The position numbers and the translations under genes were made by a program. The notes under the pieces are model-generated. The model made no database searches and was not told where the DNA came from. It worked only from the letters and a program-made list of their open reading frames with translations. A DNA stretch of 64,000 nucleotides, from the NCBI RefSeq assembly GCF_058153355.1, contig NZ_CM177019.1; one strand, 5' to 3'. Below are positions 40,569 to 52,195 of the stretch, one piece after another. Each line of letters opens with the position of its first letter. Positions within the stretch are counted from its first letter, which is position 1.

Positions 40569-40982
40569 ATGGCTAATAAACCTTCGGCAGAAGAACTGAA
40601 AAAAAATTTGTCCGAGATGCAGTTCTACGTGACGCAGAATCATGGGACAGAGCCGCCATTTACGGGTCGTTTACTGCATAACAAGCGTGACGGCGTATAT
40701 CACTGTTTGATCTGCGATGCCCCGCTGTTTCATTCCCAAACCAAGTATGATTCCGGCTGTGGTTGGCCCAGTTTCTACGAACCGGTGAGTGAAGAATCCA
40801 TTCGTTATATCAAAGACTTGTCACATGGAATGCAGCGCATAGAAATTCGTTGCGGTAACTGTGATGCCCATCTGGGGCATGTCTTCCCCGACGGGCCGCA
40901 GCCAACGGGTGAACGTTATTGTGTTAACTCAGCCTCTTTACGCTTTACCGATGGCGAAAACGGCGAAGAAATCAACGGTTGA
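40569..40982 (+). CDS. msrB: peptide methionine-(R)-sulfoxide reductase
   Basis: ORF 40503-40982; start at ATG 40569 ([33 protein letters not shown]...) giving 137 aa; zinc-binding CxxC pairs (CLICDAP, CGNCDAH). Confidence 0.93.
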
Positions 40983-41023
40983 AAAAACGATTCAGCAACT
41001 TATTCCACAGGAGCGGAAAAATT

Positions 41024-41296
41024 ATGAATCTTGATGACATTATCAACAGCATGACGCCTGATGTATACCAGCGTTTGTCGACTGCCGTTGAGCTGGGGAA
41101 ATGGCCCGATGGCGTTGCGCTGACCGAGGAACAAAAAGAGAACTGCCTACAGCTGGTGATGCTGTGGCAAGCCCGCCATAATACCGAAGCACAGCATATG
41201 ACAATTGACACACATGGTCAGATGGTTATGAAGAGCAAACAACAGTTAAAAGAAGATTTTGGTATCTCAGCAAAGCCTATTGCCATGTTTAAATGA
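41024..41296 (+). CDS. yeaC: DUF1315-family protein
   Basis: ORF 40979-41296; start at ATG 41024 after SD GGAGCGG (MNLDDIINSMTPDVYQRLSTAVELGKWPDG...) giving 90 aa. Confidence 0.85.
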   Translation: MNLDDIINSMTPDVYQRLSTAVELGKWPDGVALTEEQKENCLQLVMLWQARHNTEAQHMTIDTHGQMVMKSKQQLKEDFGISAKPIAMFK

Positions 41297-41464
41297 TTGA
41301 ATTATTCAGCTTTTTGAGTCTGTTATTAAGTGCGAACAAAAATACTTGTTTGACGTCTTGATTGTTCGATTTAGCGGTTGATAGGTTAAATGCAACACTG
41401 ACGAGTATAACCTGGCCTACGATGTCAATGAGGAAATGTAGGCCAGAGATGTATTCAACTAATA

Positions 41465-42106
41465 TTACTCCTGCGTCTCTTCCCAGTCTGCCAGCGTATA
41501 TAGCGTTGCCCCAGCTGCTGACATCTCCATAAACGCGTGCGCACTGTCCTGTGGCTGGATATTCACGCCACGACAACCATCGGTAATCACATTAACCTTA
41601 TAACCTAACTGTAACGCGTCCAGCACGGTAAACTTCACGCAATAGTCAGTAGCCAGGCCCATAATGATCAATTCATCGATTTCATGATCGCGTAACCAGT
41701 CATCGAGCGTGGTTTTCTGCCGACGGCCGTTATCAAAAAAGGCACTGTAACTGTCAACTAAAGGATTTTCGCCTTTATGGAACACCGCTGCGATCGCTTT
41801 TTGGTTCAGTAACGGATGTAATTGTGCGCCTTCACTGTTCTGCACACAGTGATCTGGCCAGAAGGTTTGTGGCAAACCGTCGAGTTGGCCTGGCGTATAA
41901 GGCTCTACACCGTGCTGACTGGCAAAACTGCCGTGATTCGCCGGGTGCCAGTCTTGACTGGCGATAACCGCTTCACCGCGCGACTGGCACCAGTCAATCA
42001 GGCGGTTAGCGACATCCACCGTACTGTCACCTTCCGGCACGGCGAGCGCGCCACCAGCACAGAAATCATTTTGTAAATCGACCAGTAACAGGGCGCGAGG
42101 GGGCAT
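41465..42106 (-). CDS. pncA: nicotinamidase / pyrazinamidase
   Basis: ORF 41465-42124; start at ATG 42104-42106 (MPPRALLLVDLQNDFCAGGALAV...) giving 213 aa. Confidence 0.93.
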   Translation of the reverse strand: MPPRALLLVDLQNDFCAGGALAVPEGDSTVDVANRLIDWCQSRGEAVIASQDWHPANHGSFASQHGVEPYTPGQLDGLPQTFWPDHCVQNSEGAQLHPLLNQKAIAAVFHKGENPLVDSYSAFFDNGRRQKTTLDDWLRDHEIDELIIMGLATDYCVKFTVLDALQLGYKVNVITDGCRGVNIQPQDSAHAFMEMSAAGATLYTLADWEETQE

Positions 42107-43133: not shown

Positions 43134-43264
43134 GATATTGATATGAATGATATCGAAAGAGCAAAAGTATATACGTGAGGGGCAGCGAGCGCACCTGGTT
43201 ACTCTGTGGATATGAGAAAAGTCCGGCAGAACGGAGGGATTAGTGTCCCGCCGGAGAAAAGTGG

Positions 43265-43987
43265 TTAATCCTGCAACGCATAGGTTACGGTGGTGACTAC
43301 GCGTACCGTTTTATTAATCGCCGTAGGATCATCTTCATCACTGCCACTGGCGAAGATCTGGAACACGCCTTGTGAGGCATCGCTAATTGACCCCACCTGG
43401 CTACCTGAGTCCGTTGCAAATTGTAATGCTGCGTTGCGTGCATCTTTGGTGGCGGCGGCAATCATCTCAGCGCGCAGTGCGCCAATACCATTAAAGCGAT
43501 AGGCGACTTTGCTCTCAGCGATAGCGCCCTCCGTAGCGACTTGCAGTTCGTTTAATTTCGCGACGACTTTTTCGACAGCAGCAACATTATGGGTTTTTAT
43601 CGTCACTGACCCGTCTGCGTTATAGCGTGGCATTGTGGGATCATCTTTCAGATAAAAGGAATCTGTTCGCTTGCTTTTCCATTGGCCCAGGGTTATCTCT
43701 TTCTCGTTAATCCCCTGAGCATTGAGTTCGGCAACAATTTTTTTCTGCGCGTCTTCCAGTTTCGGGAACAGTTCGCCGGGAATATTACCCTTAAAGTTAA
43801 TCGCAATTGTTAATTCTGCCGTATCTGCGCGAACTTCTTTTTCAGAAAGCCCACGCACATTTACATAACGGTTATTGGTTTTTAAATGTTTAACACCATC
43901 GCCAACAAAATAACCACAGGCGCTAATCCCCAGTCCGAGGACGATAGCGGCAATTAAAGAGGGGGCCTTATTCACTGATAACTCCAT
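43265..43987 (-). CDS. SIMPL-domain (DUF541, YggE/BP26-like) protein with N-terminal signal anchor
   Basis: ORF 43265-44077 (270 aa from GTG); the more plausible start is ATG 43985-43987 (MELSVNKAPSLIAAIVLGLGISACGYFVGD...), 240 aa, a hydrophobic N-terminus followed by a SIMPL-like domain; sits between sppA and ansA. Confidence 0.7.
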   Translation of the reverse strand: MELSVNKAPSLIAAIVLGLGISACGYFVGDGVKHLKTNNRYVNVRGLSEKEVRADTAELTIAINFKGNIPGELFPKLEDAQKKIVAELNAQGINEKEITLGQWKSKRTDSFYLKDDPTMPRYNADGSVTIKTHNVAAVEKVVAKLNELQVATEGAIAESKVAYRFNGIGALRAEMIAAATKDARNAALQFATDSGSQVGSISDASQGVFQIFASGSDEDDPTAINKTVRVVTTVTYALQD

Positions 43988-44090
43988 ATCAGATGCTAAA
44001 TGAGCAAGGGAATGTAGTGGAGAGAGGGAGTGAAAGACAGTCCGATTCAGGAGTGTGGCCGACAGCATATCGGCCACATTTTTGCAGGAT

Positions 44091-49799: not shown

Positions 49800-52158
49800 G
49801 TCGGGTAGCAGCGATTCATTACTGTCTCGCCGCCCCCTAAGAACGGTACGTGCGAGTTTCCCCGCATACCGCTCAAGCCTTTATAAGCCTCCACCTTGTG
49901 GGAGACCAGCGTCATTACTATGTAGTTGTCGATGGCAGTTGGGATGGAGTAGGACTAAATTGCTCACATCATCGCTACCGCCAAGAGATTTCTTGAGCAA
50001 ATGATGAACATTCCATCCTGTATCGCGATTAATCGGTTGCTCACATAAAGGGCAGCGCGATCCTTGCCTTTTCCATATAGCGAGAATCCTTTTCTGCCCC
50101 TGTTGGGATTTCTTCCATGAGTAGTCCAGCCTTCTTTCGAAGTATGTTTCCCACTCGGGATCATATGGATTTGCCGTTCCCTTTATTTTTATATAGCGAT
50201 TAATATGGATGTCGCTGGCCCGGGACAGAACATATTTCCTACCCTCCGGATCGACTCCATAAAATCGACCATGACACATTTTTATTGTCGTGTGGTACTT
50301 TCGGAAGATCCATCTCCGGCCTTTGCCGGGATGTCTCCTTCTGCACCACTGCCAGATTTTGCGCCAGATTTGGTTGTCGACATAGTTAAATGTCTCTGCC
50401 GATGCTACATGTTGGTGATAGTTTGCCCACCCGGTGATGATTGGATTAAGCAGATTTATTAGCACCCATGCAGGAACCGTTCGGTTACCTTCAATAGTCT
50501 CTCTGATCTTGCTAAGAAATTGTTTAACGTTTTTCTTGGCTGGTCTGATTATGAGTTTTCTACCGAAGCGTCGGACGTGCTGCCCAAGGAAATCAAATCC
50601 GTCAGTAATGTGAGTGATGACCGTTTTCTCTTCGGATAACGTCAGCCCTCTTTCTGCAAGAAATGATTTCACCAACGGAAGAACATTCTCCTCCAGAAGT
50701 TCTTTCGACTTTCCGGAAATGATGAAATCATCAGCATACCGGACGAAGTGAACCTGATGTTTCCTGAATGTTTTTGAGCGTTTCGGACCAAAGCGATTTT
50801 GCAGCAGTCTTTCCAGTCCATCCAGGGCCATGTTTGCCAGAACTGGAGATATGATTCCTCCCTGGGGTGTACCCGAGAGAGTTTTGCTGAATATGCTTTT
50901 TTCGATGATCCCGGCTTTCAACCAATTACGGAGTATTTGCTTGTCCATAGGAATATTTTCAAGCAGCCACTCGTGGCTAATGTGTTCAAAGCATCCTTTA
51001 ATATCGCCTTCCAGAACCCATTTCGAGGCGTTCCGGGAACTATACATATTACATACCTGTTGAATGGCGTCAGCCGTACATCGCGCTGGTCTGAAACCAT
51101 AACTGTTGTGATCTGCATTAGTTTCCGATACAGGCTCCAATCCCAGCAGATGCAGGGCCTGCATTGCCCTGTCAAGCATGACGGGGATTCCTAATGGTCT
51201 TTTCTTGCCATTAGATTTGGGTATAAAAACTCTTTTTAGCGGTAGGGGCTTGTACCCTTTTCGCCTGAGTTTGAATATCGCTTCCCATTTTGATTCTGGA
51301 GTACTCCAGATTTGACCATCAACTCCGGGGGTTTTACGCCCGCTATTTTCCGTAACTCGTTTCACCGCCAGTGCTCTGGCGCTGAATGAGCGAACCAGCA
51401 ATCGTTGCAATCTACCGACTGTACGCCATTGCTGGTTACATGCCGCCTTTGCGATTCTTGTCTGTATGGTTTTAACGTGTTGATGGCATTTCTTCCAGTT
51501 AATGGAATGCCAACCTTTTCCGTTGATGACCGCAGTTACATTGTTAGATGTAATTTTCATACATGTCATCCAAAGAAACCTTCGCAGATGTTTCGCAATT
51601 AAAGACCAGATGGAAGTCAGCACGGTTTCCCGTTAAGGCAAATATTGAACCTCTATCCGCACGATTACAGTCCGGCTTTCGCTTTTTCCATCCTCCTTTA
51701 CCCGCATTCTCATCAGTTTGCCTTACGGTGCCCCTGCCACTAGGGCGAGAATTCGGGCTTACCAAGTTCCGACCAACATACAAAGAACGGGTTAGGTTCT
51801 GTCTATCCGCCGGGGGAGTTATTGTCCATGTATTCCCACTACGAACAGGAATAGCCTTACCCCTTACCTTTTGGTGCAAGCCTATCAGCATCTTTGGCTC
51901 GTTCTCTGTTACGACGTTTAACGACAGTTCACTATGTTAACCATACCGCCCAGCCTAGCGCTCTCGCCGCATGATGCTTGTAGCGATCAGGTTTTCTCAC
52001 GATTAACTGAAGCAATATTTGCTAAGCTACATTGTCCCAAGGGCTTCAGACAGAGCCGTTACCAGCTTTGCCTGCCTCAGTAGGCTACAACTAATGGAAT
52101 AGTTGGTTTTATATAAATAATTTATCAAAACAATATGTTGGACGACTTCTTGTCGCAC
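49800..52158 (-). mobile_element. group II intron, full length with intact intron-encoded protein (boundaries approximate, +/- 10 bp)
   Basis: Minus strand: 5' end GTGCGACAAG... at 52158; about 535 nt of domains I-III; ORF in domain IV (49881-51560); canonical 34-nt domain V GAGCGGTATGCGGGGAAACTCGCACGTACCGTTC at 49842-49875 (AGC triad, GAAA tetraloop) 6 nt after the ORF stop; short domain VI ending about 49800. Confidence 0.85.
49881..51560 (-). CDS. group II intron reverse transcriptase/maturase with C-terminal HNH endonuclease domain
   Basis: ORF 49881-51623; likely start MKITSNNV... at ATG 51558-51560; RT block with YADD catalytic motif (VHFVRYADDFIISG), maturase X region, and HNH/En motif (CPLCEQP...WNVHHLLKKSLGGSDDVSNLVLLHPNCHRQLH). 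Confidence 0.88.
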   Translation of the reverse strand: MKITSNNVTAVINGKGWHSINWKKCHQHVKTIQTRIAKAACNQQWRTVGRLQRLLVRSFSARALAVKRVTENSGRKTPGVDGQIWSTPESKWEAIFKLRRKGYKPLPLKRVFIPKSNGKKRPLGIPVMLDRAMQALHLLGLEPVSETNADHNSYGFRPARCTADAIQQVCNMYSSRNASKWVLEGDIKGCFEHISHEWLLENIPMDKQILRNWLKAGIIEKSIFSKTLSGTPQGGIISPVLANMALDGLERLLQNRFGPKRSKTFRKHQVHFVRYADDFIISGKSKELLEENVLPLVKSFLAERGLTLSEEKTVITHITDGFDFLGQHVRRFGRKLIIRPAKKNVKQFLSKIRETIEGNRTVPAWVLINLLNPIITGWANYHQHVASAETFNYVDNQIWRKIWQWCRRRHPGKGRRWIFRKYHTTIKMCHGRFYGVDPEGRKYVLSRASDIHINRYIKIKGTANPYDPEWETYFERRLDYSWKKSQQGQKRILAIWKRQGSRCPLCEQPINRDTGWNVHHLLKKSLGGSDDVSNLVLLHPNCHRQLHSNDAGLPQGGGL

Positions 52159-52160
52159 TC

Positions 52161-52195
52161 GTAGGCCAGATAAGGCGTTCACGCCGCATCTGGCA
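52161..52195. repeat. REP (repetitive extragenic palindrome) element downstream of gdhA
   Basis: GTAGGCCAGATAAGGCGTTCACGCCGCATCTGGCA matches the E. coli REP consensus family (GCCGGATGCGGCGTGAACGCCTTATCCGGCCTAC) with a G-to-A variant in each arm. Confidence 0.75.

Follow-up and report, generated by a model that had tools for sequence, protein, structure and literature searches.

The yeaC-pncA junction of an Escherichia coli strain without ydjE-ydjL: a known gene-content polymorphism and a probably REP-derived inverted repeat beside pncA

In Escherichia coli K-12, eight genes (ydjE to ydjL) lie between pncA and yeaC, whereas in the strain studied here the two outer genes are neighbours. The question raised by this locus is whether the short gap between them is an ancestral empty site or the scar of a deletion, the two readings offered by the initial annotation, and whether an inverted repeat found inside the gap marks the point at which the block was lost. 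Our analysis is based on a stretch of 64,000 nucleotides, hereafter the window. The yeaC stop codon (TGA, 41294-41296) and the pncA stop codon (41465-41467, reverse strand) leave 168 bp between the genes, at 41297-41464, as had been claimed. The annotation of MG1655 gives the order pncA-ydjE-F-G-H-I-J-K-L-yeaC, so that the K-12 arrangement had been stated correctly, and the block is indeed absent from this locus: tblastn with the K-12 proteins detected no ydj gene in the 64-kb window, the sole match being that of YdjG to its paralogue yeaE, at 27% identity.

The features discussed below are listed in window coordinates. Among them are sequences related to REPs (repetitive extragenic palindromes), which are GTAG-headed elements of ~35 nt that often occur in inverted pairs (BIMEs).

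40569-40982, + strand: msrB, the upstream partner in the msrB-yeaC pair; 100% identity to K-12 MsrB (tblastn); coordinates transferred from the annotation of strain EC42405.
41024-41296, + strand: yeaC (DUF1315), identified by translation; Pfam PF07023, E 1e-27; 95.6% identity to K-12 YeaC (tblastn).
41297-41464, no strand: yeaC-pncA spacer of the ydj-less haplotype, 168 bp, 36% G+C.
41297-41389, no strand: spacer segment specific to the ydj-less haplotype; the apparently decayed counterpart of a hairpin in the first ~35-45 nt, the remainder without detectable counterpart.
41386-41420, - strand: probable REP remnant; the head-proximal 9-13 nt (GTAGGCCAG...) still recognisable, the distal stem arm gone.
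41390-41464, no strand: pncA-proximal segment, present in ydj-carrying alleles too, where it corresponds to the K-12 ydjE-pncA intergenic region (blastn and alignments).
41412-41420, + strand: left arm of the inverted repeat, CTGGCCTAC; alignment columns 17-24 invariant in seven Escherichia alleles.
41421-41437, + strand: loop of the inverted repeat, 17 nt, variable among alleles (7 of 17 columns invariant; a 2-nt deletion in locus L013).
41438-41446, + strand: right arm of the inverted repeat, GTAGGCCAG; probably a lone inverted REP head that lacks a REP body.
41465-42106, - strand: pncA (nicotinamidase), identified by translation and the EC42405 annotation; 98.6% identity to K-12 PncA.
52161-52195: a typical REP, GTAGGCCAGATAAGGCGTTCACGCCGCATCTGGCA, with the same head as both arms of the inverted repeat.

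The ansA-pncA pair is convergent on yeaC. With yeaC and pncA contiguous, a type-1 spacer of the 160-168-bp class between them and zero ydj genes, the E. coli strain from which the window derives carries the ydj-less haplotype at the yeaC-pncA interval.

This haplotype is widespread. We found the junction as a single contiguous piece in 1,090 of 5,426 complete E. coli genomes (20.1% without the ydj block), and the K-12 ydj block, searched with an 8.7-kb query, in the other 4,336. With every one of the 5,426 genomes accounted for by these two counts, E. coli has two haplotypes at the yeaC-pncA site. A single spacer architecture is common to all 1,090 ydj-less genomes, which include ECOR29 and O111:H8 strains; the common 160-bp spacer was detected in every one of them, and in 1,088 at full length with at least 90% identity. 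The 55 bp that adjoin yeaC in occupied alleles were present in 4,334 of the 5,426 genomes. The missing ydj genes are a normal population variant, neither an assembly error nor a strain-specific event.

The absence of ydj is itself already on record as an ordinary gene-content polymorphism, dependent on phylogroup and seen mainly in B1, and it concerns the identical eight genes between pncA and yeaC. YdjH and YdjI were reportedly characterised by Huddleston and Raushel in 2019, who are said to have placed the ydj cluster in ~80% of E. coli genomes, a prevalence that our 20.1% of ydj-less genomes fits. The strain studied here is accordingly expected to be without the YdjH/YdjI pathway for long-chain sugar acids (octuluronate). 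One published study tied the presence of ydj to niche and to lactic-acid tolerance. The Ydj cluster has been counted among strain-variable functions (PMC4556653), and the prevalence of ydjI was given as 96.6% in phylogroup A, 29.9% in B1, 100% in B2, 50% in C, 100% in D and 100% in E (PMC9602453), a B1-biased absence that fits ECOR29 and O111:H8 strains being ydj-less. Neither of these two papers describes the junction. What our data add is the junction anatomy and the observation that one spacer family serves all ydj-less E. coli.

Within this family the window carries a rare allele. Its spacer is collinear with the common ydj-less type, but the left 93 bp (41297-41389) are only 68-72% identical to the common spacers and to the spacer of a second Escherichia species with the same ydj-less architecture (L013). 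At 99% identity or more, the left-half variant was found in only 2 of the 5,426 genomes, EC42405 (cattle, France) and N96 (Tibetan pig), and GAACAAAAATACTTGTTTGACGTCTTGATTGTTCG can be used as a search sequence for it. The left half differs by ~30% from the spacers of the other 1,088 ydj-less E. coli, even where the flanks are up to 100% identical; Z0117EC0005, for example, has flanks 98-100% identical to those of the window, yet carries the common spacer. Such a pattern suggests that the left half is a short-patch replacement of non-coding DNA. The situation recalls the switched intergenic regions of E. coli, reportedly described by Oren and colleagues in 2014 and by Thorpe and colleagues in 2018 as exchanged between near-identical genes, in that a ~93-bp segment is ~30% divergent while the flanking genes are 98-100% identical (window versus Z0117EC0005). 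It differs from them in lying between two gene ends instead of in a promoter region, so that a regulatory effect is not obvious. An inversion as the source of the low left-half identity was rejected, because the alleles are collinear with scattered substitutions. A 22-codon hydrophobic ORF, MIELFSFLSLLLSANKNTCLTS (41293-41361, + strand), overlaps the yeaC stop codon through the motif ATGA; it is not conserved in the common or the L013 spacer alleles and is probably spurious. The source lineage of the window as a whole is poorly represented among complete genomes, the best match over 20 kb among the 5,426 E. coli being about 98.8-99.0% identical (all at least 94%).

The inverted repeat itself is real. 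The perfect 9-bp repeat with a 17-nt loop described at 41412-41446 is present in the sequence, and no second inverted repeat of 8 nt or more exists in the interval 41200-41560. A search of the 64-kb window for the pattern GGCCTAC-N(1-30)-GTAGGCC gave one match, and 100 shuffles gave 0. The hairpin is situated between the convergent yeaC and pncA, 18 nt from the pncA stop codon, and its folding energy is -17.6 kcal/mol for the + strand and -16.9 kcal/mol for the - strand (z -3.9 and -5.1, respectively), 0 of 200 shuffles being as stable in either case. Among seven distinct Escherichia alleles, the core arm columns are invariant (16 of 16, versus 11 of 47 other columns; Fisher 4e-8). No covariation was found in the stem of these seven alleles, 8 of the 9 pairs never varying; because the stems are invariant, the evidence for a constraint on the hairpin is that of conservation alone.

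The idea that the repeat marks the junction did not hold once ydj-carrying alleles were compared. In K-12 this hairpin stands between pncA and ydjE (TTGGCCTAC, 17 nt and GTAGGCCAG), and E. whittamii and Escherichia sp. E1V33, which also carry ydj, have it adjoining pncA as well. It is found likewise in the ydj-less alleles of E. coli and of the second Escherichia species. Its presence beside pncA in ydj-carrying alleles places the hairpin inside DNA common to both allele types, and the boundary at which their similarity ends is near 41390, ~20-25 bp to the left of the repeat. The hairpin is therefore older than the loss of the ydj block and is neither a product of the rearrangement nor a deletion scar, so that the repeat beside pncA should not be taken as one. 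That we are dealing with a known polymorphism, and with a hairpin that existed before ydj was lost, is almost certain as a joint statement.

Where the hairpin comes from is indicated by the same ydj-carrying alleles, which bear out the likeness to a REP terminus noticed at the outset. The REP at 52161-52195 can be aligned over its full length with the ~36 nt leading up to and including the left arm in E1V33, E. whittamii and K-12, with scores of 15-20 versus 6.2 +/- 1.1 for shuffles (0 of 500 as high). In these orthologous occupied alleles, the left arm thus forms the final 9 nt of a complete REP of ~36 nt, which ends ...TTATCTGGCCTAC. The REP of E1V33, TGCCAGATGCAACGTTGACGTGTTTTATCTGGCCTAC, contains the palindrome GCCAGAT...ATCTGGC and reaches a score of 20, equalled by 0 of 500 shuffles. 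Ydj-less alleles, by contrast, retain no more than the final 9-13 nt of the REP. Only the terminal 9 nt, CTGGCCTAC, of the allele in the window align with the REP at 52161-52195 (score 9; 12 of 500 shuffles as high), and the ~35-nt palindrome that a REP should have of its own, present in the occupied alleles, is gone. What forms the hairpin of the window is two REP heads paired with each other, rather than a REP stem.

Two other properties agree with this relationship. Both arms of the window carry a GTAG(GCC) head, GTAGGCCAG(A), which is the head of the REP at 52161, and the right-arm sequence GTAGGCCAGA is identical to the first 10 nt of that element. The position is extragenic, after the 3' ends of the convergent yeaC and pncA. 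The second copy does not make the locus a BIME, being a 9-10-nt head without body in every Escherichia allele examined. A true head-to-head REP pair is found at the yeaC-pncA site in L053, and REP pairs or single REPs occupy the same site in other genera (L053, L015, L082). The 64-kb window contains one clear REP with the same head (52161) and one REP of another type (34118); GTAGGCC occurs in it 6 times, versus 4.6 expected, and is not over-represented. It is very probable that the inverted repeat is of REP origin, consisting of the last 9 nt of a REP and an isolated inverted REP head.

The position of the hairpin invites a functional reading, in which it would be a bidirectional intrinsic terminator for msrB-yeaC and ansA-pncA, conserved for termination. 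It has a G+C-containing stem close downstream of two stop codons, the stem is stable on both strands, the spacer holds no other strong structure and the arms are invariant across Escherichia; moreover, the corresponding place beside pncA is taken in other genera by a different G+C-rich hairpin. However, no T/U run follows the stem on either strand, the loop has 17 nt instead of 3-8 nt, a terminator scan called no site in 40900-41800 and the stem shows no covariation. In addition, the K-12 Term-seq tables assign no 3' end to pncA and place a region of Rho termination ~450 nt beyond the hairpin, antisense inside ydjE (Adams et al. 2021 supplement), from which it follows that transcription apparently reads through the hairpin. 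A conserved terminator is thus an improbable explanation. The hairpin is no intrinsic terminator and at most a REP-type stem-loop in the 3' untranslated RNA of convergent transcripts. Judged from sequence, some role in RNA is conceivable, though we lean against it. The invariant arms could also stem from gene conversion by other REP copies, without local function, and an inert relic maintained in this way is equally possible as a stem-loop with a REP-type role. A promoter scan of the spacer gave nothing meaningful, and a search of the spacer region against Rfam returned only a chance match (E 3.6; 14 bits versus a gathering score of 65).

The other end of the spacer tells a different story. 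In occupied alleles and in E. albertii, a strong hairpin, ATCCCCTTT...AAAGGGGAT, stands directly 3' of yeaC; in the occupied alleles it folds with -22.2 kcal/mol (z -3.3), and the primary 3' end of the K-12 yeaC mRNA lies 14 nt past it (Adams et al. 2021 supplement). As ydjL is downstream of yeaC on the same strand in occupied strains, this hairpin would insulate the ydj promoter. No stable fold exists on the yeaC side of ydj-less alleles (41297-41389; -7.6 kcal/mol, z about 0). Between 41297-41389 and the intergenic region of occupied alleles there is little similarity (matched in score by 11 to 26 of 300 shuffles), and L013 shares with the occupied alleles the first 11 nt, GTGGTTTATCC, immediately past the yeaC stop codon. 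In the ydj-less alleles this looks like decay of the hairpin after its role was lost, because no ydj promoter was left to insulate.

To place the two haplotypes in time, we turn to the loci of 80 species, a set to which E. fergusonii, E. marmotae, E. ruysiae and the E. coli representative do not belong. The ydj block occupies the same slot in E. whittamii, E1V33, Citrobacter amalonaticus S646, the C. freundii complex, the K. oxytoca complex, Intestinirhabdus and UBA3516, and is missing from the site in Salmonella, Kosakonia, Phytobacter and others, so that a vertical history requires many losses. Identity at the DNA level between E. coli and other Escherichia is 86-92% for ydj and 84-89% for the flanks; between E. 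coli and Citrobacter it is 75-83% and 69-84%, respectively. With the same slot used in several genera and a divergence that tracks that of the flanks, an ancient deletion is favoured over an ancestral empty site. Nor does the block look like a genomic island or mobile element. In K-12 it consists of ydjE-L only, with no integrase or transposase, its composition is not strongly atypical (46.4% G+C versus 49-52% in the flanks) and the longest direct repeat at its borders is 9 nt (TATTTGGCC; ~0.1 expected by chance), which is not significant. These 9-nt repeats were also considered as a deletion substrate and rejected, since the predicted product does not match the spacer.

Across Enterobacteriaceae, the yeaC-pncA slot is a variable site with multiple cargoes. 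A GH18 chitinase-like gene (~430 aa), with or without a small HNH protein, is found there in Citrobacter, Enterobacter, Klebsiella and relatives (L017, L027, L034 and others; 10271 to ~12300), and ~8 kb of other DNA in Kluyvera. Between C. braakii (L034) and K. oxytoca (L071), ydjL-ydjF are 85-87% identical while msrB and yeaC are 78-81% identical, and the C. freundii and K. oxytoca complexes have an extra 2-kb gene upstream in common. This hints at an old transfer of the whole ydj segment between the genera of these two complexes.

The spacer does not correspond to a plain subset of the occupied flanks. When it was compared with both K-12 flanks and with the whole 9.7-kb interval, only the pncA-proximal ~75 bp matched, and we rejected a simple deletion model; the occupied alleles offer no counterpart for ~50 nt of the ydj-less spacer. 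Over the pncA-proximal segment (41390-41464), blastn gave 77% identity to E1V33 over 75 bp and 76% to K-12 over 51 bp; these 75 bp of the ydj-less allele are equally distant from K-12 (76%) and from another species (77-84%). The spacer as a whole is 16-30% diverged from the flanks of occupied alleles, while the adjacent genes differ by 1-5%, which suggests that the genes were homogenised by recombination around an old intergenic haplotype. In L013, the flanks are 91-93% identical to the window and the spacer is 22-34% diverged. A recent introgression of the ydj-less allele from that species was rejected, as the flanks are not unusually alike (10-16 mismatches per 100 bp). Relics of other cargo were sought by blastn and tblastx with three spacer alleles against the 80 outgroup loci, and only Escherichia spacers matched; a local alignment for a relic of the ydjE 3' end in the spacer did not outscore shuffles. 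Escherichia sp. MOD1-EC7003 (L009, 10274-10378) has lost ydj independently; there the first 55 bp of the occupied yeaC-ydjL intergenic region are kept and are followed by a different hairpin before pncA. That junction is plainly derived from a deletion, and its type occurs in 0 of the 5,426 complete E. coli genomes.

Overall, these data are probably best explained by an ancient ydj deletion that has persisted as an alternative haplotype. The ~9.1-kb ydjLKJIHGFE sugar-acid cluster would be an old resident of the yeaC-pncA slot, from which a single ancient deletion may have removed it, with the pncA-side end falling in or beside the distal arm of a REP. The hairpin on the yeaC side would then have decayed, and the ydj-less haplotype would have persisted and moved among E. 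coli lineages, mainly B1, via homologous recombination. On this account the spacer can be divided into three parts: what may be the decayed form of the yeaC terminator hairpin of ydj-carrying strains, ~50 nt of putative haplotype-specific filler, and the ~75 bp that apparently adjoin pncA in every Escherichia allele and include the inverted repeat. The locus would represent an old alternative haplotype retained within the species, in which a terminator hairpin is decaying and a REP has been truncated. Matters of observation are the anatomy, the frequencies in the population and the relations of homology; from them we infer the direction of change (deletion, not insertion), the endpoint inside the REP and any function of the hairpin. 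The REP-internal breakpoint is suggested by a similarity drop of ~10 nt in fast-evolving DNA, which three transitions could mimic.

Of the either/or posed at the beginning, the deletion scar has to be given up in the sense of a recent event. On that reading, the inverted repeat or REP would have mediated the excision of ydjE-L within this strain or a group of near relatives; in its favour, REPs are known join-points of rearrangements, and the REP-like arms are close to the similarity boundary. However, 1,090 genomes and a further Escherichia species have the same architecture, the occupied alleles already have the hairpin, and a spacer 16-30% away from the occupied flanks beside genes that differ by 1-5% is not what a young event would leave; such an origin is extremely improbable. 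A separate reading takes the deletion end inside the distal REP arm as a sign of cleavage or recombination at the REP. In it, REP-guided loss of the operon (for example through a REP-associated transposase or REP-REP exchange) was followed in this lineage by a 93-bp patch from a distant Escherichia lineage, placed between flanks that remained identical. It appears unlikely to us; if true, the yeaC-pncA gap would be a small, repeatedly remodelled recombination hotspot.

The choice between an ancient deletion and an ancestral empty site is less clear-cut. The short spacer could be original in Escherichia, with ydj inserted later via horizontal transfer and flank recombination. Salmonella, Kosakonia, Phytobacter and several Citrobacter and Enterobacter have yeaC beside pncA or unrelated cargo between them, and an interval that accepts GH18 chitinase-like genes, HNH genes and, in Kluyvera, ~8 kb of other DNA might have accepted ydj too. 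The slightly low G+C of the block, the hint of one inter-genus transfer between C. braakii and K. oxytoca, and the ~50 nt of spacer without occupied counterpart point in the same direction. Against these stand the identical slot and orientation of ydj in at least four genera, with a divergence matching the flanks, and a block with no integrase or tRNA in the K-12 annotation and no significant flanking direct repeat. The yeaC hairpin, moreover, has kept its structure in every occupied allele, as in E. albertii, and is apparently decayed in the ydj-less alleles, L013 still keeping 11 nt; the REP is of full length in the occupied and truncated in the ydj-less alleles; and Escherichia sp. MOD1-EC7003 provides a second, clearly deletion-derived junction. 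We therefore regard insertion into an empty site as the weaker, rather doubtful alternative, and a deletion, ancient in age, as the likelier origin of the ydj-less allele as far as the sequence comparisons go: the synteny across genera favours it without proving it.

The importance of these results is small beyond bookkeeping, although the yeaC-pncA locus may be of use as a simple marker of lineages. Another small difference in gene content lies 2 kb from the junction, where an additional SIMPL/DUF541 gene is found between ansA and sppA (43220-44053; ORF 43265-44077, - strand; Pfam E 6e-18). This gene is missing in K-12 and L013 and present in EC42405 and MOD1-EC7003. Farther along the window, a complete group II intron (49800-52106, - strand) is situated between topB and gdhA, where K-12 has ynjI. 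Rfam recognises its domains D1-D4 at 51959-52106 (112 bits) and D5/D6 at 49800-49876 (65 bits), and its ORF (49881-51623) encodes a reverse transcriptase/maturase/HNH protein (RVT_1, E 8e-41; GIIM, E 3e-23). The REP at 52161 immediately adjoins this intron.
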